Origin: a bacterium | GTDB lineage: Bacteria; UBP7; UBA6624; JBBIMK01 | Assembly: GCA_037444445.1 (NCBI GenBank) | Contig: JBBIMK010000026.1 | Coordinates: 1 to 28,306 of the forward strand | Direction of reading: 5' to 3' | DNA: 28,306 bases | Part shown: positions 3,465 to 25,796 of the stretch, in pieces | How positions within the stretch are numbered: the stretch's first letter is position 1 | Layout of the letters: every line of letters starts with the position of its first letter | The notes under the pieces: model-generated | What the model was told of the DNA's origin: nothing | The model's input: only the letters and a program-made list of their open reading frames with translations | Database searches by the model: none | Made by a program: the position numbers and the translations under genes

Positions 3465-3586
3465 AAGGTAGAAAGCAGAAAATCAGAGTGCATTCTGGGA
3501 AAGCCCTTGAGGTATTGAGCATCGGGCTTACATTTCTACCCTTCTGCTGCACGACGCACGGCTTCTGAGTATGGGTGGAAGGGAAG

Positions 3587-3595
3587 TGGTATAAT
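3587..3595 (+). promoter_or_regulatory. Extended -10 promoter element (TGgTATAAT) for rnpB
   Basis: TG at 3587-3588 and TATAAT at 3590-3595 sit about 7 nt upstream of the predicted RNase P RNA 5' end. No good -35 was seen. Confidence 0.4.
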
Positions 3596-3601
3596 GGTAG
3601 T

Positions 3602-4006: not shown

Positions 4007-4033
4007 TTTTTATATTCACGCATCGGACTGAGA

Positions 4034-10700: not shown

Positions 10701-11674
10701 GGATGAATCTGAAAGTATCTGCGATAGATTTCCATGGCCTCTTTGGTTACATCCCGGGTGCCCGGGAGGTTGCGAGCGGCGAAGGATAGCACCTCTTCAT
10801 CCTGCGGGTAATGAATCGCTGCATTCTTCGCCTGTTGAATGGTGGTGTAATCTTTTTCTCCCACTTGTAGTGCATATTTCACGAACACGAGGTCCAGAAT
10901 CGGTGCCCCTCCTGTGTGGCGGGCACAGGATTGGAGCAATTCCACGATTTCAGGGGAGATTTTTTTCGCCCCCGCCACCTTCTTCGCCATCACCTTCGCT
11001 ACCTCCAGCAGAGATGGAAAGGCCGACAGCGCTTCCTGGTAGACCTCCATACTTTCGGCAGAGGTGTCTTCATCCGCCGCCAGCATCCGTGCATAGCGGT
11101 TCAATCCCGCCTTATCCAGGGCTTTCAGGAAATGAAGACGCTGAAGAACGCGACGCTCATCCGCTGCCTTCTCTGGTATCCCGGAATAGATTTTCTGGAG
11201 ATACTTGAAGCCTTTCACCCAGAGTTTATCGCGGTCAACCGCCCGCTCTATCACTTCTATACTCTCGCCGTCCGACTTCCCCTCCTTAATCAGGCATTCC
11301 CCATAACCCACCAGTATGACCGCATCGTCAGGATAGATGGTGAGGGCTTTCCGATAGACCTCCAGAACCGCACGAGCACATTCACCCCGCTTCACATACA
11401 CGCGGGCAAGACTGCGAATCACCTCCGGATTCTCCGGGTCCCGCTGAATCCACCGGCGGTAGAGTTCCAACAACTGCTCCTCGGGATAAGCCTTCCGGTA
11501 TCCCTCCTCCAGAAGGGAAAAAGCCTCGCGCATTCGGGTGAGGTTCGGAGTGACCTCCAGGAGGCGGATGGCTTCCCACAAATACTCCTCCGCCTCCCGA
11601 ATCCGACCTGCTCGAAAGGCTCTCCGGGCATTTCCCATCAGCCTCCCTATCTTCATTCCGGATAGAATTGCCAT
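7763..11674 (-). CDS. Large TPR-repeat protein with a C-terminal degenerate J-like domain
   Basis: 1303-aa uninterrupted ORF. Many A/Y/W/L-patterned 34-residue repeats are present (for example AEEYLWEAIRL and ALEAWERIKAFDPTNRYADFLLSAAY). Near the C-terminus, FYWFLGLEKYATVRDVERRYFKLIKTYGPEKHPEEFILLEEAYQHL resembles a J domain but has HPE in place of HPD. Confidence 0.8.
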   Translation of the reverse strand: MAILSGMKIGRLMGNARRAFRAGRIREAEEYLWEAIRLLEVTPNLTRMREAFSLLEEGYRKAYPEEQLLELYRRWIQRDPENPEVIRSLARVYVKRGECARAVLEVYRKALTIYPDDAVILVGYGECLIKEGKSDGESIEVIERAVDRDKLWVKGFKYLQKIYSGIPEKAADERRVLQRLHFLKALDKAGLNRYARMLAADEDTSAESMEVYQEALSAFPSLLEVAKVMAKKVAGAKKISPEIVELLQSCARHTGGAPILDLVFVKYALQVGEKDYTTIQQAKNAAIHYPQDEEVLSFAARNLPGTRDVTKEAMEIYRRYFQIHPKDREFLAGIVALFSEAGAEDPWVLEIYKAAVTQGVTVPEKGLKRVATLLAQRRDSSPAAGAIYRAAHRLGLRTSAILELLAVDLHRTQEISTLAEEIFRSVFDLTLTREIKLLSAEGIYRQIHSATQIPPAYAVYLDYLLQENRLPEVTPAIVDALAPYYLSRRAQDEKALQVYQGYLQRHPEEKTFRWEVVPFFLQQGITSPFALSLYAKFYEEGGRTPQVLDILLKQELSSPQRSPLFFPIAMDILKYDLPIIRQIPGEIWQEVARFAFQNGRFSEALLAIQKAMDLGITDGELLYLKAKSLLATQKLSESREILQTLGDGFASQRAYWLGVIGFLKGDWEMAHQHFIEATKEKTLAPFALARIGLTFEKQRLPGKAMEVYQKAAGYKSVAGYVWSRIGKLCMQAGQYEAAMDAYRRAISQGEKSVTRELASALYTYATIQAGKGHYPQAAALLSEALKQDWHNKSLWKSAVQMAFRAGLSHYARGQYKEASRWFNETLSLNYKFYQARFYLALSYHHLKEVKKSLVEYEELLRTPLKSDEQVRYYGALAQFEDGRPECVREFYHLFLSAKNKEIQEKAFRALIFSILAMDLPPEITSAIQIPEEEVQATFPPWIYASFLLKLKRYGETIRVLSRSRQEDPDDPRILFFLGLSYLLKGDRSQGLPYWHRIMDLNPAKIGDRKMVVDVYTRIGFFFMEEGFTDKALEAWERIKAFDPTNRYADFLLSAAYKQVGYALAKRDNLREAVMKWDLARRLYPRDLEVLHNLALAFTILGEWKDAARLWKLLQNHWKRELDKTPDMTHYAIWLEESNNFLSSQEDGAKPSATALTRANAEDYLSFVKRANQFYWFLGLEKYATVRDVERRYFKLIKTYGPEKHPEEFILLEEAYQHLTNPKLLEKSLLYTFDPVNLNTLRTELHKYKIFVEDFLFWERNLIPFDQPLKLEPGQEEKEFEELPSVESVFPPLEVETPFNDWHV

Positions 11675-11743
11675 TTTTCCCCTCTACCTTTTCTCCTGCT
11701 TATGATATAATTTCTGTAGTTAATTATAATACAGAAGGAAAAA

Positions 11744-14554
11744 ATGAAAAAGAGGGCGAGGCAACTTTTTATTATCCTTTTCATCTTCCTCTTCCACAGG
11801 GCTTTAGAGCCTGCCTTGCCGATTCTCGGCACACCACAGGAGCTTCCTCCCTCTACTCCTGTAGAGTCCGACTCCACCTTCCCCATCCCTATCCAGGCGG
11901 TGGAAGTGGTGAACCCCCTCACCGGCAGGCTCACCCGTGCCGTTTCAGGTGAGTTACTGATTGTCGCCGAAAAGGGGAAAGAGAAGGATACAGAATCTCT
12001 GCTTTCCTTTCATCACTTTCTCATTCTCCATAAACTTCCCGAAATCTCTGCCTATCGCGTTGCCATTCCCGCGGGGTTCAGTATGGAACAAGCCCTGAAA
12101 CAGGTAGCCGGATGGGCGGGCATCCGCTCTGCGGAGTTTAATTATTTCATGTATCCAGCGGATGTTTTCCCGAATGACCCGAATCTTGCCAGCCAGTGGT
12201 ATCTGGGGAAGATTCGTGCTTTTACCGCATGGGAATACGGAACCGGCACCCCCGCTCAATCTGTGGCAGTAGTGGATACCGGTGTGGATATTCAGCACCC
12301 TGACCTGATGGGTAAAATTCAGCCCGGTGGATGGGATTTTCAACAGAATGATAGCGACCCCTCGGAAGAGCCCTGTGTGGACACCAACAAAAATGGAAAC
12401 TGTGACCAGGGGGAGCCGTCGGGGAATGTGGGACATGGGACCGGGGTTGCTGGCGTCATTGCTGCCGCCACGAATAACGGCATCGGCATCGCAGGGCTGG
12501 CATGGCAGACGAAAATCTTCCCCGTTCGGGTCTTCCCGGCCAACGGCGGCGCCCCCATCTCTCAGATTGCCCAGGGCATCCTGTATGCCGCCAGAGAGCC
12601 TTCCGTCCGCATCATCAACCTGAGCCTCAGCGGACCGGATGATTCCAGCACCCTCCGCGAAGCCATTCAATTCGCCTATTACCGCGGGATTCTAATTGTC
12701 TCTGCCGCCGGCAACAAACCCCCGGATGTGTATCCGGGTGTCTACCCGGAGACCCTTGCGGTGGCTGCCACGGATAACACGGATAAAAGAGCCGATTTCT
12801 CCAATTATGGGGATTGGGTGGACCTTTCTGCCCCAGGGGTCAGTATCTTTTCCACCACCTTCACCCGGCAAAGTCAGCATGCGTATACATCGTGGAATGG
12901 GACGAGTTTTTCCGCTCCGGTGGTATCCGGCGTTGCCGCTCTTCTTTTCGGGCTTCACCCCGCCTGGACCGCCCAGCAAGTGATAGAGCATCTGAAAACC
13001 ACTTCCGACGACATCTCGGTTGCCAACGATTGCAATCAAGACACTCCGCCGGATTGGTGCGGGAAAATGGGCGCCGGGCGGGTGAATGCCTACAAAGCCA
13101 TGCTTGCCGGAGATGTGGAGCCTCCGCTGTGGCTTTCCGCCCGCCCCCTGAAAAATGATTCCGTCCTCCTTCACTTCAATGAACCGTTAAATCCACTGCC
13201 GATTTCTTCCGGTCAGGCGGGATGTTCTTCTCCAGACATTTCCGTATCTCAGATTCGCCTCACCGAGAAGTCGGAGGATGTGGAAGCCTTCACCAGCCCC
13301 CAGCAGGGGGGCAGAACCTATGCCCTCACTTGTTACGGATTTCAGGACCTCAGCGGGAATCAAATGACGCCCGCCCAGAACACCTTCATTGGCACGAATT
13401 CCGTTTGGAATTTCGCCTCCAGCCAGCGAGGCAGTTCCATCTCTCCTGCAGGCACTGGCGCCCTGATTGATAATAACCCCACCACCGCCATCACCGGCCA
13501 GGTCAACCCCACTCCTCCCGATTATACCATTACTCTTCCCTCTATTGAGTGGCTCAACCGCATCGTGGTGCGAGGGGGTGAGCCCGTCCTCCGATACCGC
13601 CTCCGGCTCGGCGTCGACCGGTCCAGCCTGGATACCCTCTGGGAAGGGTATGCCACTTTCGACCAGAGCATCTCCTTCTCTCCCTCCGGAGTAAGATACA
13701 TCCAATTGTCCGTGCTGGAAAGTGCTGAACCGAACGGCATTTTCACTCTTTACGAACTGGAGGCTTACCGGGATGACATCACCCCCCCCGCTCTGGTGAC
13801 CCTCCCCCGCGTTCAAAGCCTCTCTTCCACCTCGGTGAAAGTTACCTGGGCAACGGATGAGCCAGCAGGGGCAGGCGTTTTCTTCCGCACCCTCGGCTCT
13901 CCTGAATATCAAACCGCATCCACCCCTTCCCTGACTTACTCCCACGAATTCACTCTCTCCAATCTGGATTCTCAAACCGCTTACGAATACTATGTGGAGA
14001 ATACCGATGGCTGGGGAAACAAGACGCAATATCCAGAAGTGGCACAGGGAAGTGCCCCCCTGACCTTCTTCACCAATGGCACTTTCAGCGCCTTTCACCA
14101 GCCTCCGAGGAACTTCGGTGTCATCGGGCGGAGCATTCCCCTGTCCCTTCAGGTTACCACCTCCCCTGCCTCCGTTCAATTATTCTACCGGGAATTGGGC
14201 GCCTCCTCTTTCCAGAGCACGGCGATGAATGTGAACGGGCAGTCCGCCACCGGCGCCATCCCCGGCTCCGCCGTCCTCTTCCCCGCTATGGAATATTACT
14301 TCCTCATCCAGATTTCCGGGGAGGGCAGTTTTAACTACCCTCCATCGGGATACTTCCGCATAAATACCACCATCGCTGGCGACGCCAACGGAGACTTCAT
14401 CGTAGATGAGTTAGATGCCTTAGAAGTAGGCTTTGGGCTGGGGCGAACCCTCGCAAGCCCTGACTTTTCACTCAATCAGGATGCCGATGGTAACGGCATC
14501 GTGGATGAGGCGGACATTGCCTTCATCCAGGCTCACTTCAGCGATTCTCCATAA
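11744..14554 (+). CDS. Secreted multidomain subtilisin-like (S8) serine peptidase with a C-terminal dockerin
   Basis: Has a signal peptide (MKKRARQLFIILFIFLF) and the catalytic triad motifs VAVVDTGVD (Asp), HGTGVAGVIAA (His) and GTSFSAPVVSGVAALL (Ser). After these come Ig-like, discoidin/F5-F8-C-like (ALIDNNPTTA...LYELEAY) and FN3-like (VKVTWATDEPA) regions. The C-terminus has two dockerin-type Ca loops, GDANGDFIVDELDALEV and DADGNGIVDEADIAFIQ. Confidence 0.9.
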   Translation: MKKRARQLFIILFIFLFHRALEPALPILGTPQELPPSTPVESDSTFPIPIQAVEVVNPLTGRLTRAVSGELLIVAEKGKEKDTESLLSFHHFLILHKLPEISAYRVAIPAGFSMEQALKQVAGWAGIRSAEFNYFMYPADVFPNDPNLASQWYLGKIRAFTAWEYGTGTPAQSVAVVDTGVDIQHPDLMGKIQPGGWDFQQNDSDPSEEPCVDTNKNGNCDQGEPSGNVGHGTGVAGVIAAATNNGIGIAGLAWQTKIFPVRVFPANGGAPISQIAQGILYAAREPSVRIINLSLSGPDDSSTLREAIQFAYYRGILIVSAAGNKPPDVYPGVYPETLAVAATDNTDKRADFSNYGDWVDLSAPGVSIFSTTFTRQSQHAYTSWNGTSFSAPVVSGVAALLFGLHPAWTAQQVIEHLKTTSDDISVANDCNQDTPPDWCGKMGAGRVNAYKAMLAGDVEPPLWLSARPLKNDSVLLHFNEPLNPLPISSGQAGCSSPDISVSQIRLTEKSEDVEAFTSPQQGGRTYALTCYGFQDLSGNQMTPAQNTFIGTNSVWNFASSQRGSSISPAGTGALIDNNPTTAITGQVNPTPPDYTITLPSIEWLNRIVVRGGEPVLRYRLRLGVDRSSLDTLWEGYATFDQSISFSPSGVRYIQLSVLESAEPNGIFTLYELEAYRDDITPPALVTLPRVQSLSSTSVKVTWATDEPAGAGVFFRTLGSPEYQTASTPSLTYSHEFTLSNLDSQTAYEYYVENTDGWGNKTQYPEVAQGSAPLTFFTNGTFSAFHQPPRNFGVIGRSIPLSLQVTTSPASVQLFYRELGASSFQSTAMNVNGQSATGAIPGSAVLFPAMEYYFLIQISGEGSFNYPPSGYFRINTTIAGDANGDFIVDELDALEVGFGLGRTLASPDFSLNQDADGNGIVDEADIAFIQAHFSDSP

Positions 14555-14579
14555 AAAGAAACCTCTGGACCCTTACATT

Positions 14580-14846
14580 CTAAATCCGGAAGAGCGGGCG
14601 GGAAATGAGTATCCCAACCGCAGAGACGATGAAAAATCCCGTGGCATATCCCAGCGGCAAGCCTAAAAAACCTAAAAACAACCCGTAGAGCGAAATACTT
14701 TCCATTAGCGACCATTTCACCACCAGATTTCTGACCCTCAAGGCAATAAGAAAGGAAACTCCGGAAATGACCAGGAAGATATAGGTGAGAAGAGAGAGGG
14801 AAGAGGGAGAGAAAGGAATTATAGCCCCGAGCCGAAGCCAAATCAA
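14580..14846 (-). CDS. Possible small membrane protein (TTG start)
   Basis: 88-aa ORF with three hydrophobic segments, unlike the overlapping 128-aa ORF, which does not look protein-like. It has a TTG start, no clear RBS, and no recognised family. Confidence 0.3.
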   Translation of the reverse strand: MIWLRLGAIIPFSPSSLSLLTYIFLVISGVSFLIALRVRNLVVKWSLMESISLYGLFLGFLGLPLGYATGFFIVSAVGILISRPLFRI

Positions 14847-15505
14847 CAGGAAAAGATAATACGCCCCTACCGCCGCCAGAAATGCCCACCAGGAATTTAT
14901 CCGTTATCCTTTCTTCCATCTTTTTTCCACATCTCTCCTCTAATTTTACATTAGATGTGAAACAGGTTGTGCGAAGCCAAAAAGTGAGAGAGAAGAAACT
15001 TCATCACTCCATCTGGAGCGTTCTGTTGGGATGAATAAAAAATCATTTGTTTGCTACTGCTCCCCTGTGATGGGCGGAAAGGAATATTTATTCTGAGAAA
15101 GTTGAATGCGTTTTATCACTCTGTAACAAAAAAAATTTTTACGGGATGCAAATAAAAACGCTCCCCAAAAAATCTAAAAACAGGAGTATAAAAAAATTTA
15201 TGGAATGGATGCGTGAATTCCGGAATGCACTGGAAATTGCGTCTATAACAGGGTTACAAAAAATAGAAAGAAATTATTAAAAAAAACGGGACGAGAATTT
15301 TTTTTCTGCTCTTAGATTTTTTTTCTGATTCCTCTCGCGAAAAAAAATTATGCGAATGATTGCGGATGAATTAAATTCAAAGGGTGAGTTGTGAACACAC
15401 GATGAACACGGGGATTGAAAGGTTTTCATTTTTACTTCTCCAAGAACGAGCAAGAAAGTTTTTGAAAATTTCTTACCAAAATTTACCAAAAAATTGACGG
15501 GGAAC

Positions 15506-15534
15506 TTGACAGTTTGAAAAAAGGCTATAATAAT
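15506..15534 (+). promoter_or_regulatory. Candidate sigma70-type promoter for the kamA operon
   Basis: TTGACA at 15506-15511 is followed 17 nt later by AATAAT (15529-15534), overlapping a TATAAT at 15526-15531 (14-nt spacing). It sits about 70 nt upstream of the kamA start, at the end of the AT-rich gap. Confidence 0.3.
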
Positions 15535-15602
15535 TAGTAGTAAGATGAAGCAAAAGGGCAAAATATGGAGGCTCGAAAATCCCATCGGGGGAGGTGTTCG
15601 GC

Positions 15603-16982
15603 ATGAGCCAGGAGTCTGATGCTTCAGAGGCGGACAAACCGCCCTCATCGGTTTCAACGGTAATTGAGCGTACCCCTTCCGCTTACTCTTATGAGAGAAG
15701 ACTTCCTTATTATGAGGGAGTTTTAGAGGAAGAGTGGAACGACTGGAAGTGGCAGTTGCGGAATGCCATCCGAAGCCTGCGACAACTGGAAAAGGTTTTC
15801 CCTTTAACTCCGGAAGAGAGGGAGCAGATTGCCCAGGTGGGGGATGTGTATCCGATATTGATTTCCCCCTACTATCTATCGTTGATAGAGGTGGACAATC
15901 CCCGGGACCCGATTCGTTTGCAGGCCATTCCATCCGTAGAGGAACTGACAGTGGGGCAGGAACTGGAGGAAGACCCCTTAGAGGAGGAGACGGATTCCCC
16001 GGTTCCCGGGCTGACCCATCGGTATCCCGACCGGGTGCTGATGGTCACCACTGATTTTTGCTCCACTTACTGTCGTCATTGCACCCGAAAGCGATTGTTT
16101 CGTGTGGATTTGCCTCGCCAGAAGTTGCCGGACATTGAGGCAATGATGGCTTACATTCGGGAGCACGAGGAAATACACGATGTCATCCTCTCGGGGGGCG
16201 ACCCCCTCACACTCTCCCTGAACAAACTGGAATACATTTTATCCAACCTGCGGAAAATTCCGCATATAGACATTATTCGTCTGGGGAGCCGGGTCCCCGT
16301 TACCCTGCCCCAGCGCCTGTTTGACAAAGAACTACTCAGTATGCTGGAGAAATATGGACCCCTCTGGTGTAACACCCACTTTAACCATCCCAATGAGGTG
16401 ACGAAAGAGGCCTCTCTGGCGGTGAAAAACCTTCTGTCGGTGGGCATACCGGTAAACAATCAAACGGTTTTATTAAAGGGCGTGAACGACGATGTGGACA
16501 CAATGCGTCAGTTATGTCGCGCCCTATTACGCATCCGGTGCCGACCCTACTATCTCTTCCACTGCGACCCGGTTCGGGGAGCGGCTCACTTCCGCACCTC
16601 CATCTGGAAAGGTATTGAAATCGTGGAAGGCTTGCGCGGGCACATCTCGGGATTGGGAGTGCCTCTATATGTGGTGGATGCCCCCGGCGGTGGCGGGAAA
16701 ATCCCCATTATGCCTAACTACATCCTCTCCGCCAATGACCAGAGCGTGATTCTGAGAAATTACGAAGGGCTGATTGTGAAATACCACCCCTTCGGCGCTC
16801 CTGCCAGAGCCTCATCCCATCCCCCCATCAACGGGAAAAAAATGGATAAAGTGGGAATTATTCGCCTTCTCCAGGGCGAAGAAGGAACCCTCTCGTCTGT
16901 GAAAAGTCCACGATTGGAGCGGAGGAAGCATGCGCGTCGGAATCGCTTACGACCTGAAGAGCGATTACCCCACGAACCCTGA
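15603..16982 (+). CDS. kamA: Lysine 2,3-aminomutase (radical SAM, PLP-dependent)
   Basis: The ATG at 15603 is preceded by GGGGGAGG; the track start at 15594 is a GTG. Motifs are WNDWKWQLRN, TDSPVPGLTHRYPDRVL, the radical-SAM CSTYCRHCTRKR, and VVDAPGGGGKIPIMPNY (PLP lysine). The whole length aligns by eye with clostridial KamA. Both Asp positions that I recall binding the lysine epsilon-amino group are retained (HCDPV, VVDAP). Confidence 0.9.
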   Translation: MSQESDASEADKPPSSVSTVIERTPSAYSYERRLPYYEGVLEEEWNDWKWQLRNAIRSLRQLEKVFPLTPEEREQIAQVGDVYPILISPYYLSLIEVDNPRDPIRLQAIPSVEELTVGQELEEDPLEEETDSPVPGLTHRYPDRVLMVTTDFCSTYCRHCTRKRLFRVDLPRQKLPDIEAMMAYIREHEEIHDVILSGGDPLTLSLNKLEYILSNLRKIPHIDIIRLGSRVPVTLPQRLFDKELLSMLEKYGPLWCNTHFNHPNEVTKEASLAVKNLLSVGIPVNNQTVLLKGVNDDVDTMRQLCRALLRIRCRPYYLFHCDPVRGAAHFRTSIWKGIEIVEGLRGHISGLGVPLYVVDAPGGGGKIPIMPNYILSANDQSVILRNYEGLIVKYHPFGAPARASSHPPINGKKMDKVGIIRLLQGEEGTLSSVKSPRLERRKHARRNRLRPEERLPHEP

Positions 16983-17916
16983 TGCTCCCCAGGACCTGTT
17001 AGAAGAATACGATTCTCCTGAAACGATTGCCGCTTTAGTAGAGGCTCTGCATTCCCTCGGTCATGAGCCTGTGCCGCTGGGCGGTGGCCCTTCTTTCCTG
17101 CAAAAAATTTTATCCACCCGAGTAGAACTGGTATTCAACCTGGCTGAAGGCAGGCAGGGCTTCCGAAGCCGTGAAGCCCATATCCCCGCCGTTCTGGAAC
17201 TTTTAGGCATCCCCTACACGGGCTCCGACCCGTTAACTCTTGCCCTGACTCTGGAGAAATCTCTGACCCTGAAAGTGGTGGCTTCCGCCGGTGTCCCTAC
17301 ACCTCACTTCACCACCGTAAATGGCGCCGACAGCCTTACCCCTCCTTTCTCTTTCCCTCTGATTGCCAAGCCCGTTCACGAAGGCTCCAGTATGGGCTTG
17401 CGCCGCCACTCCAAAATCCTGACCCCTTCTGCTTACCAGCAGGAAATTCAGCGCCTCCGCTCGGATTATCATCAACCCATCCTCGTCCAGGAATTTCTGG
17501 AAGGACCGGAATATACCATTGGCATTCTGGGCAACGGAAAGACCGCTCGGGTTCTCGGCATTATGGAAATTCATCCGAAACTCGCGCCCGTTCCTGAATT
17601 TGTTTATTCCATTGAGGTGAAGCGAAACTTCCGGGAGGAAGTGGAATATCGGGTGAATAATGACCTGCCCCGTCCCCTTCGCCAGGCCCTGGAAACTTTT
17701 GCTCTCACCGCTTACCAGGCCCTCGGATGCCGGGATGTAGCACGGATGGATTTCCGCCTTTCTTCCGATGGCACGCCCCGCTTTCTGGAAGTGAACCCCC
17801 TGCCCGGCCTCCACCCCGTCACCAGCGACCTGCCGATTATGGCTTATGCTGTGGGGTTGAGTTATCAAGACCTGATTGGGGAGATATTGCATCATGCCCG
17901 CGGTAGATATGGATAA
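16930..17916 (+). CDS. D-alanine--D-alanine ligase-like ATP-grasp ligase (substrate unknown)
   Basis: The ATG at 16930 is preceded by GGAGCGGAGGAAGC and overlaps the kamA 3' end by 53 nt. Ddl-family features are MRVGIAYDL..., LLGIPYTGSDPLTLALTLEKSLTLKV, KPVHEGSSMGL and FLEVNPLPGL. Confidence 0.85.
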   Translation: MRVGIAYDLKSDYPTNPDAPQDLLEEYDSPETIAALVEALHSLGHEPVPLGGGPSFLQKILSTRVELVFNLAEGRQGFRSREAHIPAVLELLGIPYTGSDPLTLALTLEKSLTLKVVASAGVPTPHFTTVNGADSLTPPFSFPLIAKPVHEGSSMGLRRHSKILTPSAYQQEIQRLRSDYHQPILVQEFLEGPEYTIGILGNGKTARVLGIMEIHPKLAPVPEFVYSIEVKRNFREEVEYRVNNDLPRPLRQALETFALTAYQALGCRDVARMDFRLSSDGTPRFLEVNPLPGLHPVTSDLPIMAYAVGLSYQDLIGEILHHARGRYG

Positions 17917-19078
17917 AGATAACCCAGAAGCCCCAGCCGTTAAGAACCCCGACGAGAAATCACAAAAGCCTGAAGAGAATATTACTTCTCCACGGACGAA
18001 TGTAGAAGCCGGGGCTCAGCCCCCCGCCACCGCCAGGCCCGGAAAGGGGCTCACCGTGGGTATTCTGTTTAATCTAATGCCCGATTTCAACCGGGAGGAC
18101 ATTAACTCGGTTGTAAGAGCGGTGGAACGGATAGAATCGGTATTGCTAAATCAGGGATATCAAGCCCAACGATTCCAGGCTCACGAGGGGTTACTCCCAT
18201 TCCTTCATCAACTGGAAGCCTCCCAGCCTGATGTGGTTCTCAACCTCTGTGAAGGATACAGGGACAAAACGGAGGGCGAAGTCTACATCGCTGGCATCCT
18301 GGAGATGCTGAACATCCCCTACACGGGCTCCACACCATTCACCCTCGCTCTTGCCCTGGACAAGGTTCGGGCGAAGGAAATCTTCATCGCCCGCCGCATC
18401 CCCACCCCCGCTTATGCCGTCTACGACCAGTATCGCGAAGAAATCCCTCCCCTCTCTTTCCCCTTGATTCTGAAACTTTCCAGAGAAGATGCCTCCGTGG
18501 GTATGACGAATAAAAATGTGGTCTACGATGAGGATTCCTTCTTCCTTCGGCTGAAGAAACTCCTGAAGGAGTATTCTCAGCCCATCCTGGTGGAAGAATT
18601 CATAGATGGACGGGAATTCAATGTGGCTTTCTTGAACGACGAGCCCCTGCCCATTGAAGAAATCCTGTTCAGCATAGAGCCCAAACTGCTTTGCTATAAA
18701 GCGAAATGGGAAGAAGGGTCGGTAGAAGACCGGGGAACGATTCCCGTTTGTCCGCCACGGCTTTCCGCCAGAGAACGCAGAAAAATCCTGAAACTGGCTT
18801 ACGATGCCTACTCCGCCATCGGCGTCCGCGATTATGGCAGAGTAGACCTGAGAATGGATGCCGACGGAAAACTCTATGTCTTAGAAGTGAACCCCAATCC
18901 AGACATCACCTCCGAAGGCGGTTTCGTCCAGTGCTTGAAAGCGGCAGACATTCCTTATGAAACCTTCATCCTGATGCTGGTGGATTTCGCCCTATCACGA
19001 GGGAAAACAAAGAAAAGTTACCGTAAGACCGCTTCCCAGCCCGGGACCGTGCCCTCCACCCCTGACACCCTTTCGTAG
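17894..19078 (+). CDS. Second Ddl-like ATP-grasp ligase with a low-complexity N-terminal extension
   Basis: The start is ambiguous: TTG 17876, ATG 17894 or ATG 17909 (the last forms ATGGATAA, overlapping the upstream stop). After a ~60-aa Pro/Glu/Lys-rich extension come MLNIPYTGSTPFTLALALDKVRAKE, KLSREDASVGM and VLEVNPNPDIT. It is a paralog of the preceding gene. Confidence 0.8.
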   Translation: MPAVDMDKDNPEAPAVKNPDEKSQKPEENITSPRTNVEAGAQPPATARPGKGLTVGILFNLMPDFNREDINSVVRAVERIESVLLNQGYQAQRFQAHEGLLPFLHQLEASQPDVVLNLCEGYRDKTEGEVYIAGILEMLNIPYTGSTPFTLALALDKVRAKEIFIARRIPTPAYAVYDQYREEIPPLSFPLILKLSREDASVGMTNKNVVYDEDSFFLRLKKLLKEYSQPILVEEFIDGREFNVAFLNDEPLPIEEILFSIEPKLLCYKAKWEEGSVEDRGTIPVCPPRLSARERRKILKLAYDAYSAIGVRDYGRVDLRMDADGKLYVLEVNPNPDITSEGGFVQCLKAADIPYETFILMLVDFALSRGKTKKSYRKTASQPGTVPSTPDTLS

Positions 19079-19079
19079 T

Positions 19080-19097
19080 AGCCCCATTTATGGGGCT
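19080..19097 (+). terminator. Hairpin just after the ATP-grasp operon stop (weak terminator candidate)
   Basis: AGCCCCA-TTTA-TGGGGCT forms a 7-bp stem, but it is followed by TAAAAAAC rather than a T-run, so it is not a canonical intrinsic terminator on the + strand. Confidence 0.25.
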
Positions 19098-19118
19098 TAA
19101 AAAACAACAAACCTACAA

Positions 19119-19140
19119 TTTGGGGGTCAGACCCCAAAAG
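19119..19140. repeat. Palindromic repeat, copy A (TTTGGGGGTCAGACCCCAAAAG)
   Basis: Member of the TTTTGGGG-N5-CCCCAAAA family. It lies 3 nt downstream of the stop of the 19143..19949 gene. Confidence 0.7.
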
Positions 19141-19142
19141 TC

Positions 19143-19949
19143 CTAATCTTCTATTTTGGTGAGGTCCCGTAAGATTGTATCAAGCGGCGGAATGCCGGTA
19201 ACAGGTGCAGATATCCGGGGGGTGGAACGAGGCACTGCACGCGCGTCCTCAAAGACCTCAGCAACAGGCAGAGGCAATTGTTCGATCGCCCCTCCGAAAG
19301 AAACGATAAGCGCCATCTTATAGTGCCATCCAGGGGTGTAACGGTGGAACACACTTGCCCCGTTTAGACGAACAAACTCGCCATTGCCGTCTCTCCAATA
19401 GAGATACGCCCATTCTACCGGTTCCGCAGGGCCAGTGAAGAATTCGCTTTTCACCTCAACCTGTGTGTCATGCGGAACGAGAAGATAGTACCCGTCCACC
19501 GTGTCCGAGTAGTCAATTCCACTGAATGTAATGGATAGGGCCATCGGTGCTGTCCTGGAGGTGAACCTCAGGGTGCTGCCCAAGTCCTCCACTTCCACGA
19601 CGCGTTTTGGCGGTCCCTGGGCAATTTCCTCTTCCAGTTCCGGCTTGGTCAGGAACCAGGTCGCTTGTATTCTGGATACCCAATTTTTTACACCAGGGAT
19701 GAATTGGGTAAGGGATTTCAAGTCTAATGTTGAGTCTGGCTCAGCCTTCCCAGGCGCGACAAGGGCAAGAACTGCCTGGTTACCCTCCGGTCCCACCCAA
19801 TAAATTACTCCGGAGGAGCCGTCTGGAACAGATATTTTTTCAGTCGAGGCGTCTATGAAATTCATTGGATAGTACGACCGTCCAAATGGGTCAAACATCC
19901 CTCCAGCGGGCAATATCCCAGACCTCCAAATCGTGCTGGAATGTCTCAA
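19143..19949 (-). CDS. Hypothetical protein without a signal peptide, bracketed by palindromic repeats
   Basis: 268-aa maximal ORF with a TTG start at 19949. In-frame ATGs at 19898 (preceded by GGAGGG) and 19865 are alternative starts. No family recognised. Confidence 0.55.
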   Translation of the reverse strand: MRHSSTIWRSGILPAGGMFDPFGRSYYPMNFIDASTEKISVPDGSSGVIYWVGPEGNQAVLALVAPGKAEPDSTLDLKSLTQFIPGVKNWVSRIQATWFLTKPELEEEIAQGPPKRVVEVEDLGSTLRFTSRTAPMALSITFSGIDYSDTVDGYYLLVPHDTQVEVKSEFFTGPAEPVEWAYLYWRDGNGEFVRLNGASVFHRYTPGWHYKMALIVSFGGAIEQLPLPVAEVFEDARAVPRSTPRISAPVTGIPPLDTILRDLTKIED

Positions 19950-19957
19950 ATAATGTC

Positions 19958-19984
19958 ACCTTTTGGGGTCAGACCCCAAAATCT
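19958..19984. repeat. Palindromic repeat, copy B (ACCTTTTGGGGTCAGACCCCAAAATCT)
   Basis: Exact 27-nt duplicate of copy C, lying 43 nt away. The core is a perfect 10+1+10 palindrome. Confidence 0.8.
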
Positions 19985-19991
19985 CAGTTAT

Positions 19992-20195
19992 TTATCTTCC
20001 ACCTTTTGGGGTCAGACCCCAAAATCTTTTCCAATACCGAGCTCTTGACTTGACTAACCAGTACCGAAGAAGTTGGCGCGGCCCATCAGGGTTAGCATCG
20101 TGGGTGGATTGCGAACCCGAGAAAGCAGGTGCACCGAACACCAATAGGAAAACCAGTTCGCTCATAAATAAAGTATGCTTCCGCAACATCATCAT
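19992..20195 (-). pseudogene. Possible remnant of a secreted-protein gene, with only the signal peptide left and the 3' end running into repeat C
   Basis: 67-aa ORF. MMMLRKHTLFMSELVFLLVFGAPAFSGS looks like a Sec signal peptide. Only ~38 residues follow, and the last ones (RFWGLTPKGGR) are encoded by the palindromic repeat itself. Confidence 0.25.
20001..20027. repeat. Palindromic repeat, copy C
   Basis: Identical to copy B. The 16-nt spacer between them is CAGTTATTTATCTTCC. Confidence 0.8.
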
Positions 20196-20289
20196 TCATC
20201 TCCACACTCTTCCGGGTGGGGAACTCGGGGGAATTGGTTATCGCGACGAGATGCCTTTAACATGAAGGTTGGCAAGCGGTCGCTCCGGA

Positions 20290-20320
20290 CACCGTTTGGT
20301 GCCTGACCCCAAAAGGGGTG
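20290..20320. repeat. Palindromic repeat, copy D (degenerate left arm: CACCGTTTGGTGCCTGACCCCAAAAGGGGTG)
   Basis: Shares ~28 nt with copy G (CACCGTTTGGTGCCTGACCC[C]AAAAGGG). The right arm GACCCCAAAA matches the family core. Confidence 0.65.
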
Positions 20321-20340
20321 ATTTTACCGCACCCTCCTTC

Positions 20341-20422
20341 CTTTTTGGCAAGCCCTTCCATCTTCTTCTCTCCCCTCATCTTCCCTATTGCCCTCCGCTC
20401 CCCTTTTCCATCTTATCGGTCG
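20341..20422. repeat. CT-rich (purine-rich on the minus strand) intergenic repeat, copy X
   Basis: Contains GCAAGCCCTTCCAT (20348-20361) followed by CT-rich sequence with CCCTCAT, TCCCT and CCTC blocks. It is alignable with 28210..28276 and lies immediately 3' of a minus-strand gene stop. Confidence 0.5.
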
Positions 20423-21658
20423 TCAGGGGATTCGTATGGGGTAGCCGAGTGCGAACTCATCTATGCCCGGCTTGCCGTTAGAATGAGACTGGATAAAATA
20501 TCCTGAAAACTCTATTCCGTCTCCCGTCAGTGAAGCCAGCACCTGTCCGGGCTTCATTTTCTTCTTTGCTTCCACTGCTTTTGAACCCGATAAGAAAGTG
20601 GGGCTGGCTAAACGGTCCCACAGAAGTGGCCGAGGATTTACAGGGGCTATACGCTCAAACCATTCCTGTACAGAAATACCTGATGGAGGCCTGTCTAAGT
20701 TGGTATAAATATTCCAGGGCAGGGTGGCTGCCTCGGAGAGAAGACGGAACATTGCATCTGTAATGTGGTCTTCCTCCAGCAAATAACTGCCGGGCTTCCC
20801 CTTGCCCGCCACATATATGGATATGCGGAATTCATTTTGAGACCCCGGAAACCAGATGAGAGCAAGTTTTTCTCTTTCCTTCTTCCAATCTACCATCAGC
20901 ACAGGGTTTTTCTGATATGTTGCCGGGAGCTCCCACAGATTCGCACGAGTTTGTTCTACTTCTTCCCATGTTTCGGGGAGACGCTGTGTTATATTGAAAA
21001 AAGTAGAAATGCCTTGCAGAACTGTCAGGAATAATTGGTCTATCTCGCCCAGTCTTTTATTTGGAACCCACTCCCCGTAGCCTGTATAATGAAATGCGGA
21101 AGCCTTTCCGTTGGAGCAGACCAAGATGAAAGACCATCCGTTAGGAAGCCCCCAGGAAGCTGCCCGCCCGGATGGCAAGGATAGGGAAACTTCCTTCAAA
21201 GGATACTGAACTTTTAGATAAGGAAAATCAGGCTCCCGAGAGAATCGCCAGTAGCCCAGGTTCCTGGCAAACACCGCCACAGAATCCAACCATCCATACA
21301 TCTTCAGGATATTTTCCTGCTCTTCTGAGAAGGCTTCAATGAATCGGGCTGTTTTTCCGACTGGTTTGTAGATAACGGGCTGACCTGTTTTACGGGCTTC
21401 TTGACCCACTTCTAACATCTCCTTCTTCCACCGCTTCATTTCTCGTTGCATGCGGAAGAGCAATGACATCGCTTCCTTTACATCATCAGGTGGATTAAGG
21501 TAGATAGAAAAAGCAGATTCAAAAGTTACCGGACAGCGTTGAATATAAGAACACCCCTCTTGTAGGGCAAAGACGCAACAAGTGAGGAATGAAATGAAGA
21601 GTGTAACCTTAGTAAATCCAGTCGCCCGTGCCGTCCTCAGCTCCTTCTCCCCACACAT
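20423..21658 (-). CDS. Hypothetical secreted protein, divergent member of the pseudopilin-motif paralog family
   Basis: The track ORF starts at 21682; ATG 21658 gives MCGEKELRTARATGFTKVTLFISFLTCCVFAL (signal-like). Either start overlaps the upstream gene by 50 or 74 nt, and no ATG, GTG or TTG lies downstream of that gene's stop before the hydrophobic segment. Family-like modules are FFNITQRLPETWEEVEQ...QKNPVLMV and ATLPWNIYTNL...APVNPRPLLW. Confidence 0.6.
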   Translation of the reverse strand: MCGEKELRTARATGFTKVTLFISFLTCCVFALQEGCSYIQRCPVTFESAFSIYLNPPDDVKEAMSLLFRMQREMKRWKKEMLEVGQEARKTGQPVIYKPVGKTARFIEAFSEEQENILKMYGWLDSVAVFARNLGYWRFSREPDFPYLKVQYPLKEVSLSLPSGRAASWGLPNGWSFILVCSNGKASAFHYTGYGEWVPNKRLGEIDQLFLTVLQGISTFFNITQRLPETWEEVEQTRANLWELPATYQKNPVLMVDWKKEREKLALIWFPGSQNEFRISIYVAGKGKPGSYLLEEDHITDAMFRLLSEAATLPWNIYTNLDRPPSGISVQEWFERIAPVNPRPLLWDRLASPTFLSGSKAVEAKKKMKPGQVLASLTGDGIEFSGYFIQSHSNGKPGIDEFALGYPIRIP

Positions 21659-22505
21659 AGAACTCGTGAGCCTGGGTTCCATCTGGTTCTATCCAGTAAT
21701 TATAACTCACATCACCCGGGTGAGGGGTCGCCCATCCGTCATCCATAGGAACTTCCTGGATGAAGCGGCTCTGGAAGGGATTCCACATCTTCTTCAGCAC
21801 AGGGAATCTACGAAGCAACTCAGTGTAGGTGGGAGGTAGAGACCCCATATATTCGTCCTCAAGATTGCTATCGACACGATTGGGGTATATAGATTGAATA
21901 TAGAGAAAGTCCAGTATCCACCCGCACATCCAGGAGCGCTGGACGGTTTCCGGTGCATCAGGCGGATATTTCGGATATGGCTTCTCCTGCTCCTGTTGAT
22001 GATAGATTGATAAGTCAGAACCTGGATAACTGCGAGTATGAAACTGTTTTTCGCCATTGTGAACAACGGCTATTTCCACTGTAAGGTCTTTGGTTTCCGG
22101 ATTATAGGTCCATCGTAGATTCCCGGGAGTTGGATCTGATTCCTCCTGGACCGGCTGTCCTGTATAAGGATTAACTAAATCCTGAGACCGCACACAGGCA
22201 TAGATGGACTGCCCCAGTTGAGAATAAGTTGAGGGATATTGGAAACTGAAAAAAGCCATGGCTGTTACCTCGTCCATAATGTAATCCAGGGTCTGGATAG
22301 CACGAATGTATTTACACCATTCATCAGGGTCCCATCCTTCTGGTGGCGTGCTACAAAACAACCCACCAAACAGAACCGGATCCTCCGGCGGGTCACCTGT
22401 AAGTCCAGCACCACCCCCTCCTTCCAGGCCTACGCCGTTCAACAGAACGCCCAACGCAACCACCAACAAGCCTGTCATCAGGCTTCTTATCCATTTTCTT
22501 TTCAT
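21609..22505 (-). CDS. Hypothetical secreted protein, pseudopilin-motif paralog
   Basis: The ATG at 22505 is preceded by GGAAAGGAGGGATAAGGAA. The signal peptide is MKRKWIRSLMTGLLVVALGVLL. Module 1 is FFSFQYPSTYSQL...LVNPYTGQPVQEESDPTPGNL. Module 2 is GSLPPTYTELLRRF...MWNPFQSRFI. Confidence 0.7.
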   Translation of the reverse strand: MKRKWIRSLMTGLLVVALGVLLNGVGLEGGGGAGLTGDPPEDPVLFGGLFCSTPPEGWDPDEWCKYIRAIQTLDYIMDEVTAMAFFSFQYPSTYSQLGQSIYACVRSQDLVNPYTGQPVQEESDPTPGNLRWTYNPETKDLTVEIAVVHNGEKQFHTRSYPGSDLSIYHQQEQEKPYPKYPPDAPETVQRSWMCGWILDFLYIQSIYPNRVDSNLEDEYMGSLPPTYTELLRRFPVLKKMWNPFQSRFIQEVPMDDGWATPHPGDVSYNYWIEPDGTQAHEFYVWGEGAEDGTGDWIY

Positions 22506-22535
22506 TTCCTTATCCCTCCTTTCCATTTTGAGTAG

Positions 22536-22587
22536 CACCATTTGGTGCCACTATCTTATAGTGGCTTGAACTTTTGGGGGCAGACCC
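22536..22587. repeat. Composite intergenic repeat E: CACCATTTGGTGCC + CCACTATCTTATAGTGG palindrome + CTTTTGGGGGCAGACCC
   Basis: Three adjacent palindromic pieces lie upstream of the 21609..22505 gene. The minus-strand reading GGGTCTGCCCCCAAAAGTTCAA matches copy F on the plus strand, so E is inverted relative to F. Confidence 0.6.
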
Positions 22588-22643
22588 TGGAAGCCCGGAT
22601 GGTAAGGAGAGATAATAAAGTTGAATGTTCATTCTTTTAATCT

Positions 22644-23390
22644 CTAACTGCCTTTTTGAATGGTAGCCTGAATGGTCTGCCGCAATGCTTTTGCTGTGCC
22701 CAGAGGGTATATTGCCACCAGTCTATCCCCTTTGCCAATATAGCGATATAAAACCAGTTCTTTCCAGTTTGCCACATATTTTGGGACAGGAGATTTTACC
22801 TTAAAATCCTTCAATGTGCCCCAGGTGAATAGTTCTTTAATGGGTTTTCCATCCACCGGCGAGACCGGATTTAACTCTAAGGGGTCACCCCATTGCTTCG
22901 CCAGCTCCTCGGGGGTCTCAGGAAATTTGCCTGTGAGCAAAACATATCCTTGAAATGCTGCCCCCAGATTATTCGCCAGCGCCAGAGAGTATCTATCTTC
23001 CCTGTTTTCTTCCGTAGTGGGCGGCTTGAAGGTGTCATTTTTCAAGGTGGTGGTCTGAGAACTGTCCGAAATCCCTGGCAAAGTCAAATGAAGCAACCCC
23101 GGTTTCTCCTTCACAAAAAAATAATCGCCTGAAGATGGATTTTCCTTGCAGAGCATGGGTTTGCCGGTGAACGGGTTCCGGGGATGCCGAAAATACAGAG
23201 GTGAAGTGGTATACTCGGGGCAAGTCTCAGGATAGCGCCCGTTATACACACCCCAGAACTCCAGGGAAGTCAGGAGATACATCCTTTCACCCAGCAGGCG
23301 CATCTGCTCCGGTGAGAGTTTCTCTCGTTGAACCCCTGTCAGAGCGAAAGCTAAACCCGCGGCAATTAAAAGCCACATCCCCTTTTTCAT
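22644..23390 (-). CDS. Hypothetical secreted protein, pseudopilin-motif paralog (clearest GspG-like motif)
   Basis: The ATG at 23390 is preceded by GAAGGAGGGATGCAGA. The N-terminus is MKKGMWLLIAAGLAFALTG. Module 1 is SLEFWGVYNGRYPETCPEY...HPRNPFTGKPMLCKENPSSGDYFFV. Module 2 is AFQGYVLLTGKFPETPEELAKQW...LNPVSPVDGKPI. Confidence 0.75.
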   Translation of the reverse strand: MKKGMWLLIAAGLAFALTGVQREKLSPEQMRLLGERMYLLTSLEFWGVYNGRYPETCPEYTTSPLYFRHPRNPFTGKPMLCKENPSSGDYFFVKEKPGLLHLTLPGISDSSQTTTLKNDTFKPPTTEENREDRYSLALANNLGAAFQGYVLLTGKFPETPEELAKQWGDPLELNPVSPVDGKPIKELFTWGTLKDFKVKSPVPKYVANWKELVLYRYIGKGDRLVAIYPLGTAKALRQTIQATIQKGS

Positions 23391-23413
23391 TCTGCATCCC
23401 TCCTTCTCTATTT

Positions 23414-23827
23414 TCAATTGATTGAACAATCTCCAGTAGCACAGTGAACCAGGTTAAGTGCGGTATCCATAGCCCTGTAGGCGTCATTGTAACAGTCGCA
23501 ATGTGTGGTATTAAACGACATGATTGCACCTATTCTTAAATTTTGACATGTTCCTTTATATCCGGCATACTCACAGCAGGGCACCTCGCATTCCGAATCA
23601 CACTCACCACATTGAGTGCATGCTACCATTAGTATCATCCTTGCCGTACGGGTATTCGTGAGAGTTCCCTCGCAATACCCCCCGCCCGCACAAGGAAAAT
23701 AAAAAGGCGTGGTCCACGTTACAGGGTCTGTAGACTCTGTAGTGCAACAGGCTGCTTCAGCAGTCGCTGCCATCAGCCCCGAAATCACCACCATCATCAC
23801 TACCATCATCATAACTCCCTTTTTCAT
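23414..23827 (-). CDS. Cys-rich secreted protein 1 (137 aa; 15 Cys in the 112-aa mature part)
   Basis: I shorten the 249-aa track ORF to the in-frame ATG at 23827, giving MKKGVMMMVVMMVVISGLMAATAEA as a canonical signal peptide. My reasons: the paralogous cassette at 26151..26247 begins only ~45 nt upstream of this ATG, and the upstream part of the ORF is partly encoded by a palindromic repeat. The mature region is rich in CxxC and CC. Confidence 0.65.
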   Translation of the reverse strand: MKKGVMMMVVMMVVISGLMAATAEAACCTTESTDPVTWTTPFYFPCAGGGYCEGTLTNTRTARMILMVACTQCGECDSECEVPCCEYAGYKGTCQNLRIGAIMSFNTTHCDCYNDAYRAMDTALNLVHCATGDCSIN

Positions 23828-23870
23828 CTTCTGCAACCCCCCCTTCTCTTTTCTTTTGAGGGTCATCCCC
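23774..23870 (-). repeat. Shared 5'UTR + signal-peptide cassette, copy 1
   Basis: ~97 nt that aligns with 26151..26247 with about 4-5 substitutions and 2 single-base indels by eye. Similarity fades at the AEA signal-peptidase site. Confidence 0.8.
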
Positions 23871-23881
23871 ATTTGCCCCTC

Positions 23882-23910
23882 CATATAATATATATCCTCA
23901 GAAGTTGCAA
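23882..23910 (-). promoter_or_regulatory. Candidate promoter for Cys-rich gene 1
   Basis: On the minus strand, TTGCAA (23910-23905), a 17-nt spacer, then TATATG (23887-23882), about 55 nt upstream of the ATG. Weaker than the copy-2 promoter. Confidence 0.3.
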
Positions 23911-24134
23911 AATTTACCAAAACGCCTCTTCTATTATCGTTGTCTTCGCATGTTTTGCATATTAACTTACCCCGATTCTTTTTGAAGCCATTTTTAAGGT
24001 GTGCCTGGAAAACTTTTTTCTCTCGGGGTGGAAGATTTTCCAGCAGGGCAGTCAGTTTCTGCAGTGCCTCTTTTGCCTCCTTTTTCGTCTCCTCCTCGCA
24101 AAGTTTTTCCAGGACATCCTCCTGCCTGCTGGGA

Positions 24135-24158
24135 CTTTTGGGGTCTGCCCCCCAAAAG
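24135..24158. repeat. Palindromic repeat, copy F (CTTTTGGGGTCTGCCCCCCAAAAG)
   Basis: 9-bp arms CTTTTGGGG/CCCCAAAAG with a 6-nt centre, between the 24200..25003 gene stop and the Cys-rich gene 1 promoter region. Confidence 0.7.
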
Positions 24159-24199
24159 TTCAAAAATGGGAAATCAATCTTAGAGAATGGAACGGTTAC

Positions 24200-25003: not shown

Positions 25004-25014
25004 GTTTTAGATGT

Positions 25015-25764: not shown

Positions 25765-25796
25765 TTTCTTCAGCCTCCTTATATTTTTATTAATTT

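Follow-up and report, generated by a model that had tools for sequence, protein, structure and literature searches.

The Abl pathway to the compatible solute N-epsilon-acetyl-beta-lysine (AblA and AblB) is found in methanogens and green sulfur bacteria, and the yodP-kamA-yodQ operon of Bacillus subtilis is related to it. In pyrrolysine biosynthesis (PylB-PylC-PylD) a radical S-adenosylmethionine (SAM) lysine mutase makes an unusual amino acid, which an ATP-grasp ligase then joins by an amide bond. Ngg, a bifunctional protein with GNAT acetyltransferase and ATP-grasp parts, reportedly makes N-acetylglutaminylglutamine amide (NAGGN) together with AsnO, as Sagot and colleagues are said to have described in 2010. 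Here we analyze contig JBBIMK010000026.1 of assembly GCA_037444445.1, from a bacterium classified in UBP7, over its whole 28,306 nucleotides (the window hereafter), in which a kamA gene is followed by the genes of two ATP-grasp ligases. The three open reading frames (ORFs) in question are as follows.

15603-16982, plus strand: kamA, a KamA-family radical SAM and pyridoxal phosphate (PLP) enzyme, predicted L-lysine 2,3-aminomutase, 459 amino acids; alternative ORF start at 15594
16930-17916, plus strand: ligase 1, a predicted Ddl-fold ATP-grasp amide ligase of 328 amino acids, forming its own orthologous group
17894-19078, plus strand: ligase 2, a predicted Ddl-fold ATP-grasp ligase from a different orthologous group, 394 amino acids when read from ATG 17894

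A sequence-only reading of this DNA had taken the three genes for a candidate beta-lysine ligation pathway. Its observation was confirmed in part and its interpretation is partly supported: the core, a KamA linked to two ligases that are not Ddl, stands, and it has to be corrected on the acetyltransferase, on the kinship of the ligases and on the second of two gene overlaps. We propose that the locus is a truncated copy, lacking the acetyltransferase, of a widespread four-gene module (KamA, ligase 1, ligase 2 and a small GNAT) that makes an acetylated, peptide-like beta-lysine metabolite, an account we consider probable, if only just.

The linkage itself carries most weight. When one genome per species was scanned with a profile built from relatives of ligase 1, at least 588 species gave matches. 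From these, 80 loci were retrieved and mapped for KamA, ligase 1, ligase 2 and two downstream families, with 8-kb flanks and with the informative loci as denominators.

KamA immediately before ligase 1: 59 of the 74 loci with enough flanking sequence
KamA at most 8 kb from ligase 1: 66 of 74 (89%)
Ligase 2 as a direct neighbor: 67 of 81
Ligase 2 present: 74 of 81 (91%)
Small GNAT present: 54 of 61 (89%)
Rv0495c-like (PF11307) protein after the module: 12 of 61

About 30 of the fetched loci come from Chloroflexota (mostly Dehalococcoidia), about 21 from Planctomycetota and about 14 from Desulfobacterota-like lineages, the remainder from Myxococcota, Krumholzibacteriia, Dadabacteria, WOR-3, Acidobacteriota, Actinomycetota and others. 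KamA with one ligase of each type recurs in more than 10 phyla plus Archaea and in several gene orders, and every additional module checked holds one ligase of each type. The order is permuted to Lig-Lig-GNAT-KamA in a 3.6-Mb bacterial contig, and Nezhaarchaeales archaea carry the same four genes in a divergent arrangement. A Desulfobacterota-like variant (L025, L034, L036, L039, L041 and L049) places ligase 1 about 5 kb upstream of a kamA-ligase 2 pair, with a histidine kinase gene directly after ligase 1, a recurrent sigma-54 NtrC-type response regulator and, in all six loci, no GNAT within 8 kb. Among cultured carriers, Singulisphaera acidiphila (L094, 7001-13246) has KamA-Lig1-Lig2 and then a 582-residue fusion of a GNAT-like part with a histone deacetylase (HDAC)-type enzyme (PF00850), and Sandaracinus amylolyticus has both ligases, the GNAT and the Rv0495c-like gene; loci of the Sandaracinus type have no kamA next to them. 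After unclassified metagenome-assembled genomes (MAGs), the nearest relatives of the window's KamA and ligases belong to Planctomycetota, Dadabacteria and WOR-3. The sequence-only reading had called for a survey of kamA neighborhoods; the loci found through ligase 1 show one ligase of each type beside KamA as a recurrent arrangement, and this conservation across phyla, in permuted orders and in Archaea ties kamA functionally to the two ATP-grasp ligases.

The aminomutase is the member whose chemistry can be predicted with most detail. Residues 31-439 of its 459 (409 residues) align with the Clostridium subterminale lysine 2,3-aminomutase (PDB 2A5H) at an E-value of 3.5e-139, and in this alignment the protein keeps the radical SAM motif CSTYCRHC (CxxxCxxC), the PLP lysine K337 within VVDAPGGGGK, and D293 and D330 (2A5H numbering), all as first noticed from the sequence. 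Ruzicka and Frey reportedly found in 2007 that Asp293 and Asp330 bind the epsilon-ammonium group of lysine and are replaced in glutamate 2,3-aminomutases. Among 67 cassette KamAs, encoded in or near a module, both aspartates are present in all 67, and R134, K337 and the three cysteines in 66. The window protein passes the KamA subfamily model TIGR00238 (348 bits against a cut-off of 199); its best-scoring curated model is that of AblA, TIGR03820, where it lies below the cut-off (491 bits against 525), and it also lies below those of the glutamate (454 against 650), arginine (406 against 600) and EpmB (243 against 369) equivalogs. Because both aspartates are kept and the curated score comes nearest to the lysine-type AblA, conversion of free L-lysine to beta-lysine is a well-supported prediction at the sequence level, in line with the product expected by the sequence-only reading.

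Both ligases match the Pfam family Dala_Dala_lig_C (1.8e-32 for ligase 1, 3.4e-24 for ligase 2), and the fold of ligase 1 is further described by an AlphaFold (AF2) model with a mean predicted local distance difference test score of 91.4, whose top Foldseek matches are DdlB structures at template-modeling (TM) scores of 0.81-0.85 and 27% identity; that of ligase 2 was judged only by Pfam and NCBIfam. Their best NCBIfam Ddl/Van model, NF002378, gives 167.5 and 159.8 bits against a cut-off of 243, and the other models score lower. For a residue-level comparison, 87 ligase 1 and 66 ligase 2 sequences were aligned with Escherichia coli DdlB, whose sequence is identical to that of 1IOV and 2DLN. 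The ATP/Mg and catalytic residues (DdlB K97, K144, E187, K215, R255, D257, E270 and N272) are present in both window ligases and kept in at least 85 of the 87 ligase 1 and at least 65 of the 66 ligase 2 sequences, except at E270, where ligase 2 has Glu in 45 and Asp in 21 of 66. The positions that set D-Ala specificity are replaced: Y216 by Arg in 86 of 87 ligase 1 and by Trp in all 66 ligase 2 sequences, H63 by Glu in every sequence of both groups, S150 by Ala or Gly in ligase 2 (Ala in the window) and kept in ligase 1, G276 by Asp in ligase 2, with S281/L282 variable. In the N-terminal substrate region, ligase 1 has an invariant EEYD motif where Ddl has GGxSxE. It keeps the equivalents of the residues that hold the donor ammonium in Ddl (E25 and S153), which ligase 2 lacks in what is a weak N-terminal alignment; such a loss would fit a ligase 2 that takes an N-blocked donor, which would agree with the fusions of ligase 2 to GNAT described below. 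Acidic residues are invariant at E25, E26, D28, E73 and D300 of ligase 1 and at E125 and D342 of ligase 2; they, with R232 or W277, may line the pocket.

The two proteins share 32% identity, and profile scores run at 430-490 bits within a ligase group, 190-210 between the groups and about 130-136 for DdlB, by which measure they are two anciently separated orthologous groups nearer to each other than to Ddl. The description of the pair as paralogous Ddl-like ligases is therefore apt as regards fold and catalytic residues and misleading if taken to mean recent paralogy, and that they are bona fide Ddl is made very unlikely by their scores below every Ddl/Van cut-off and by the replaced specificity positions. 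When the ligase 1 profile was run against all PDB sequences, Ddl/Van enzymes came out closest, followed by one L-amino-acid ligase, carboxylases and cyanophycin synthase. The source annotations read "D-alanine--D-alanine ligase (family protein)" or "ATP-grasp domain-containing protein"; judging from the sequence comparisons, each is presumably a working amide ligase, and their substrates presumably differ.

The third component, a GNAT of 150-185 amino acids, has RimI as its best curated match, reaches the AblB model (TIGR03827, 266 positions) at an E-value of 0.005 at best, and matches streptothricin acetyltransferase (STAT) and AAC(6') models weakly (E 1e-3 to 1e-10), far below their cut-offs. 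It is fused to ligase 2 in L032 and L056. The sequence-only reading had found none of the known partners of beta-lysine here, and this holds for the window, which shows no GNAT and, among the Pfam matches of its large ORFs, no kamD/E, kdd, kce or EpmA family: a six-frame scan with a hidden Markov model of 57 module GNATs gave a best E-value of 0.28, no GNAT domain appeared among the window ORFs put through Pfam, and there is no AblB-type GNAT in the 28.3 kb. For the GNAT the gap is peculiar to this contig, given the 54 of 61 loci that have one. Two relatives, L086 and L090, are collinear with the window at 83% and 96% nucleotide identity and carry the GNAT 177 nt (L086) and about 490 nt (L090) after ligase 2, the two acetyltransferases being 76% identical. 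Identity between the window and L090 stops at 19142, where a minus-strand block begins in the window (19143-25815; seven genes without Pfam matches, GC 0.44-0.47). Because the break in synteny separates the operon from the GNAT, its absence is a matter of local rearrangement, insertion or assembly chimera and not a property of the system. The module normally has four genes, and its product is probably acetylated at some stage.

Further genes recur after the module. In seven loci from three phyla, among them four Dehalococcoidales and one Sandaracinus MAG, it is followed by a fusion of about 580 amino acids that joins a GNAT-like part to an HDAC-type (PF00850) amidohydrolase (L094, L071 at 10475-12208, L066, L059, L079, L056 and L078). 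Enzymes of the HDAC type hydrolyze N-epsilon-acetyl-lysine-like amides, so the epsilon-amine of the beta-lysine moiety would be the most plausible site of acetylation, and the recurrence of the fusion suggests that the acetyl group may be removable. In module versions from Planctomycetota and Myxococcota, the gene after the GNAT encodes a cysteine-rich protein like Rv0495c (PF11307, CxxxCGGxCC; L001, L005, L013-L015, L017, L018, L026, L053, L056, L082 and L084). When the flanking ORFs were clustered all against all, most groups consisted of antisense shadow ORFs or of genes specific to a lineage (for a histidine kinase, a sigma-54 regulator, a 5'-nucleotidase-like protein and an HTH-cupin regulator, the last lying upstream in some loci), and no conserved transporter emerged; the genes that recur directly after the module, Rv0495c-like and GNAT-HDAC fusion, are neither transporter, mur/fts nor EF-P genes. 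A role in anti-phage defense was also considered and rejected, with no PADLOC matches.

We propose the following sequence of events. KamA would convert free L-lysine to beta-lysine, as its conserved substrate-binding residues suggest. In complete modules the GNAT would then block one amine, most plausibly the epsilon-amine of beta-lysine, whether as a lasting cap or as a temporary protecting group, a step proposed because ligase 2-GNAT fusions occur and the HDAC-type deacetylase recurs as an accessory. Ligases 1 and 2 would both work through the acyl-phosphate of a carboxylate substrate, making a single amide bond apiece, and since they differ mutually at four Ddl specificity positions, two different, sequential ligations are expected. 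Because the catalytic machinery is conserved and each module has one ligase of each type, the outcome would be a beta-lysine-containing pseudo-tripeptide or similar conjugate, acetylated or later deacetylated. The product would most likely be a cytoplasmic small molecule, such as a compatible solute or stress metabolite, and less likely a cell-wall precursor, a preference drawn from the nature of the two recurrent accessory genes, from the near-absence of EF-P at the loci and from the lack of PADLOC matches. In the window, the three genes would act as one operon, with a sigma-70-like promoter at its head and hairpins behind ligase 2 at its end. A broader version of this proposal, in which the module is an ancient and widely distributed pathway (Planctomycetota, Chloroflexota, Desulfobacterota-like bacteria, Myxococcota, several candidate phyla and Nezhaarchaeales) that makes a new acetylated beta-lysine pseudo-tripeptide without ribosome or nonribosomal peptide synthetase, as a general stress metabolite or compatible solute, is more tentative, and we hold it to be possible rather than probable.

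Several observations weigh against the pathway as drawn. Which co-substrates are used, in what order the steps run and where acetylation takes place are guesses, and the suggestion that ligase 2 takes an N-blocked donor depends on an N-terminal alignment that is unreliable. No GNAT lies near 7 of 61 modules (about 11%), nor near the genes of this window; acetylation may therefore be unnecessary or provided in trans. At some loci the 8-kb flanks of ligase 1 contain no ligase 2 or KamA, and the window's own ligase 1 has Gln at residue 187 (17488-17490), an ATP-site position (DdlB E180) that is Glu in 86 of 87 family members. For a role as an osmolyte in particular, no salt-responsive regulator or transporter is conserved among the module loci, and the regulators that do occur differ by lineage (a sigma-54 two-component system in one, an HTH-cupin protein in another). 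Finally, we found no description of a KamA acting with two ATP-grasp ligases in open-access papers and bioRxiv, a search that left most subscription journals outside, and within that literature the remark of the sequence-only reading that it knew of no characterized example holds.

Of the other accounts of the module, the best to survive is that it makes an oligomer or polymer, one ligase priming and the other extending an oligo(beta-lysine) or cyanophycin-like chain that the GNAT caps and the HDAC-like enzyme opens again for mobilization. Related ligases whose pockets differ would suit a primer and extender pair, the ligase 1 profile weakly matches the ATP-grasp domains of cyanophycin synthase (E about 1e-4), and the module loci contain both an acetylating and a deacetylating activity by family. 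Yet Ddl-type active sites are small and closed by an omega-loop whose lysine both ligases keep, the proteins are single Ddl folds of 328-345 amino acids with none of the primer-binding or multidomain architecture of CphA, and no dedicated hydrolase is conserved, which together make chain synthesis unlikely.

A second account would have the module make a toxic beta-lysine peptide, an antibiotic or antimetabolite, with the GNAT conferring self-resistance in the manner of streptothricin acetyltransferase. The known natural products that contain beta-lysine, streptothricin and viomycin, are antibiotics, and the weak resemblance of the GNATs to STAT and AAC(6') points the same way; against this stand the fusions of ligase 2 to GNAT, which suit biosynthesis better than resistance, and the window strain, which has lost the adjacent GNAT and kept its ligases intact. 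The module also sits in small genomes, such as a 1.7-Mb Dehalococcoidales chromosome (L075), and in Nezhaarchaeales, and to our knowledge (it is an impression) neither group is noted for secondary metabolism. It is moreover spread over many phyla with vertical-looking conservation, and no exporter, antibiotic-type regulator or additional tailoring gene is conserved with it. We regard an antibiotic as decidedly unlikely.

That the ligases instead attach beta-lysine, or a peptide of it, to a protein, in an alternative modification of EF-P or a RimK/RimI-like modification of ribosomal proteins, we judge highly improbable. The idea draws on the KamA paralogue EpmB, which feeds the beta-lysylation of EF-P, on RimI being the closest curated relative of the GNAT, and on an EF-P gene that is convergent to the module of S. 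acidiphila (L094). That EF-P, with TPGNLRA in its loop, carries Asn at the position of E. coli Lys34, and it is the only one adjacent to a module: searches with E. coli and Singulisphaera queries found EF-P absent from the other 93 of 94 loci. The window's KamA stays well short of the EpmB cut-off, the ligases have the fold and loop architecture of small-molecule Ddl enzymes, and no candidate target gene is conserved nearby; Planctomycetota and Chloroflexota, in addition, already use EpmA/EpmB according to a 2026 review (PMC12856214). As for the idea that both are dipeptide ligases of the cell wall, of the ordinary (D-Ala-D-Ala) or an alternative (D-Ala-D-X) kind, with kamA merely adjacent, a reading invited by the "D-alanine--D-alanine ligase" annotations, the Ddl fold and catalytic residues, and the rodA, pbp2 and mreC genes next door in L005, it has almost nothing left to it in view of scores of 167 and 160 bits against the Ddl cut-off of 243, the replaced D-Ala specificity residues, a linkage to KamA and GNAT kept in permuted orders and in Archaea, the 53-nt overlap of kamA with ligase 1, and Pfam scans that find no mur or ftsQ neighbors in the window.

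As to how the three genes of the proposed module are laid out in the window, the following additional features were located.

15506-15534, plus strand: promoter-like site TTGACA-17-AATAAT, 11 of 12 matches, about 70 nt upstream of the kamA ATG
17899-18050, plus strand: lineage-specific insertion of about 150 nt between ligase 1 and the conserved ligase 2 domain, without counterpart in L086
19081-19096 and 19120-19137, no strand assigned: two GC-rich hairpins in the 64-nt spacer before a convergent gene

The genes are real at the places first claimed for them, with ORFs at 15603-16982, 16930-17916 and either 17894 or 18056 to 19078. For kamA, ATG 15603 is the most likely start because the 459-residue form is the called protein and GGGGGAGG lies directly upstream. 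The promoter-like site lies where the AT-rich, 680-nt intergenic region before kamA ends; a scan found 4 such sites where 3.6 are expected by chance, and the assignment is only suggestive. An Rfam search returned no riboswitch or other known RNA at 14500-15700, upstream of kamA, nor in nine related loci. The 3' end of kamA and the start of ligase 1 share 53 nt, as the ORF coordinates confirm, with GGAGG 6 nt before the ligase 1 ATG, and a kamA end overlapping a ligase 1 start is also seen in L028, L040, L060, L066, L071, L078 and L088; "translationally coupled" describes kamA better than the "translationally fused" of the sequence-only reading.

The overlap of 8-41 nt that the same reading gave for ligases 1 and 2 is doubtful. 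The ligase 2 ORF ends at 19078 and can start at 17876, 17894 or 17909, within the strain-specific insertion or beside it, and the ligase 2 of L086 has 345 amino acids and begins MPEKPLTIGILFN. Between the window and L090, 12 substitutions fall in the putative 54-residue N-terminal extension, 8 in a first or second codon position, and 2 in the first ~45 nt of the conserved domain (18056-18100), both in a third position. GTG 18056, with GGAAAGGGG upstream, would give a ligase 2 of 340 amino acids, the usual size, and a 139-nt spacer in place of the overlap, and it is probably where the conserved protein starts. Because the insertion is absent from L086 and the pattern against L090 is mostly non-synonymous, the overlap is probably spurious, the product of an in-frame insertion that evolves as non-coding DNA does and would be either a poorly constrained N-terminal tail or a non-coding spacer.

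A terminator scan found no such site in this putative spacer nor at either gene junction, and its only plus-strand matches across the three genes, a pair of weak stems that overlap, lie inside ligase 1 at 17072-17088. The operon reading therefore stands whether or not ligases 1 and 2 overlap, and we consider it sound, with the hairpins at 19081-19137 likely marking its end. In L086, ligase 1 (9136-10008) is called only as a 174-residue C-terminal fragment with an antisense ORF over the remainder, which may reflect a frameshift, a pseudogene or a sequencing error.

Elsewhere in the window, a full-length bacterial RNase P RNA of class A lies at 3604-4008 on the plus strand (251 bits), and the ORFs drawn over it, 3433-4074 on the minus and 3767-4933 on the plus strand, have no Pfam matches and are probably not genes. 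A PF13941 "MutL" protein (4912-6711, minus strand; E 1.8e-126) with a small overlapping partner gene (6695-7093, minus strand) belongs to a family found with glutamate mutase and aminomutase operons; this copy is about 9 kb from kamA on the opposite strand, and with no B12-dependent mutase subunits near it there is no evident link to beta-lysine catabolism. The stretch 7763-14554 encodes a 1303-residue tetratricopeptide repeat (TPR) protein (minus strand) that has a DnaJ domain at its C-terminus and a 936-residue S8 subtilase (plus strand) that carries a dockerin and a prodomain like that of fervidolysin, both of which are syntenic in L086 and L090. Within the minus-strand block that follows the operon, three genes (21609-22541, 22644-23429 and 24200-25003) show weak paralogy.

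If the module is what we propose, it provides a new fate for beta-lysine and a new class of ATP-grasp-built, beta-amino-acid peptide in at least about 600 species-level lineages, many of them uncultured or environmentally important, such as Dehalococcoidia, Planctomycetota, relatives of sulfate reducers and Nezhaarchaeales. Hundreds of "D-alanine--D-alanine ligase" annotations in these lineages would then be wrong, and ligases so misnamed can distort surveys of peptidoglycan genes in groups where the cell wall has been a matter of debate. The cultured carriers S. acidiphila and S. amylolyticus make the module testable.

How the module compares with described systems can now be stated more closely. 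Two routes known for beta-lysine were considered for the window and rejected: Pfam scans of its large ORFs name no kamD/E, kdd or kce family of the lysine fermentation cluster, and for the beta-lysylation of EF-P by EpmB/EpmA the EpmB score is below cut-off, EF-P occurs in 1 of 94 loci, and EpmA goes unnamed among the Pfam matches, no dedicated EpmA sequence search having been made. With AblA/AblB the module shares a lysine 2,3-aminomutase linked to a GNAT and, in some lineages, a deacetylase accessory; it differs in a KamA below the AblA cut-off, a GNAT that is RimI-like and not of the TIGR03827 type, and two ATP-grasp ligases as part of the core. The pyrrolysine pathway differs in that PylB is not of the KamA family and that neither PylD nor tRNA or synthetase genes occur at the module; among PDB sequences the ligase 1 profile did not retrieve PylC at E <= 1e-3, although PylC structures are, as we take it, present there. 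Carnosine synthase (ATPGD1) and BL00235 (PDB 3VOT) likewise ligate free amino acids with an ATP-grasp enzyme, carnosine synthase with a beta-amino acid as acyl donor, and 3VOT is a distant match of the ligase 1 profile (E 1.2e-12), yet both are far more remote in sequence than Ddl and are single enzymes without an aminomutase or GNAT partner. Ddl/VanA-type ligases (PF07478) have the same three-domain ATP-grasp fold, as judged from the ligase 1 model, and the same ATP/Mg and transition-state residues, whereas the module ligases fall below their cut-offs, have the specificity positions replaced and keep company with KamA instead of mur/fts genes. In its proposed logic the module resembles the NAGGN pathway: acetylation and an ATP-grasp peptide bond lead to an acetylated peptide osmolyte, and GNAT/ATP-grasp fusions occur in both, the module differing in its beta-lysine from a radical SAM mutase, its two Ddl-type ligases and its lack of an amidotransferase. 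The enzyme families are familiar ones; their combination, and presumably their product, is not.

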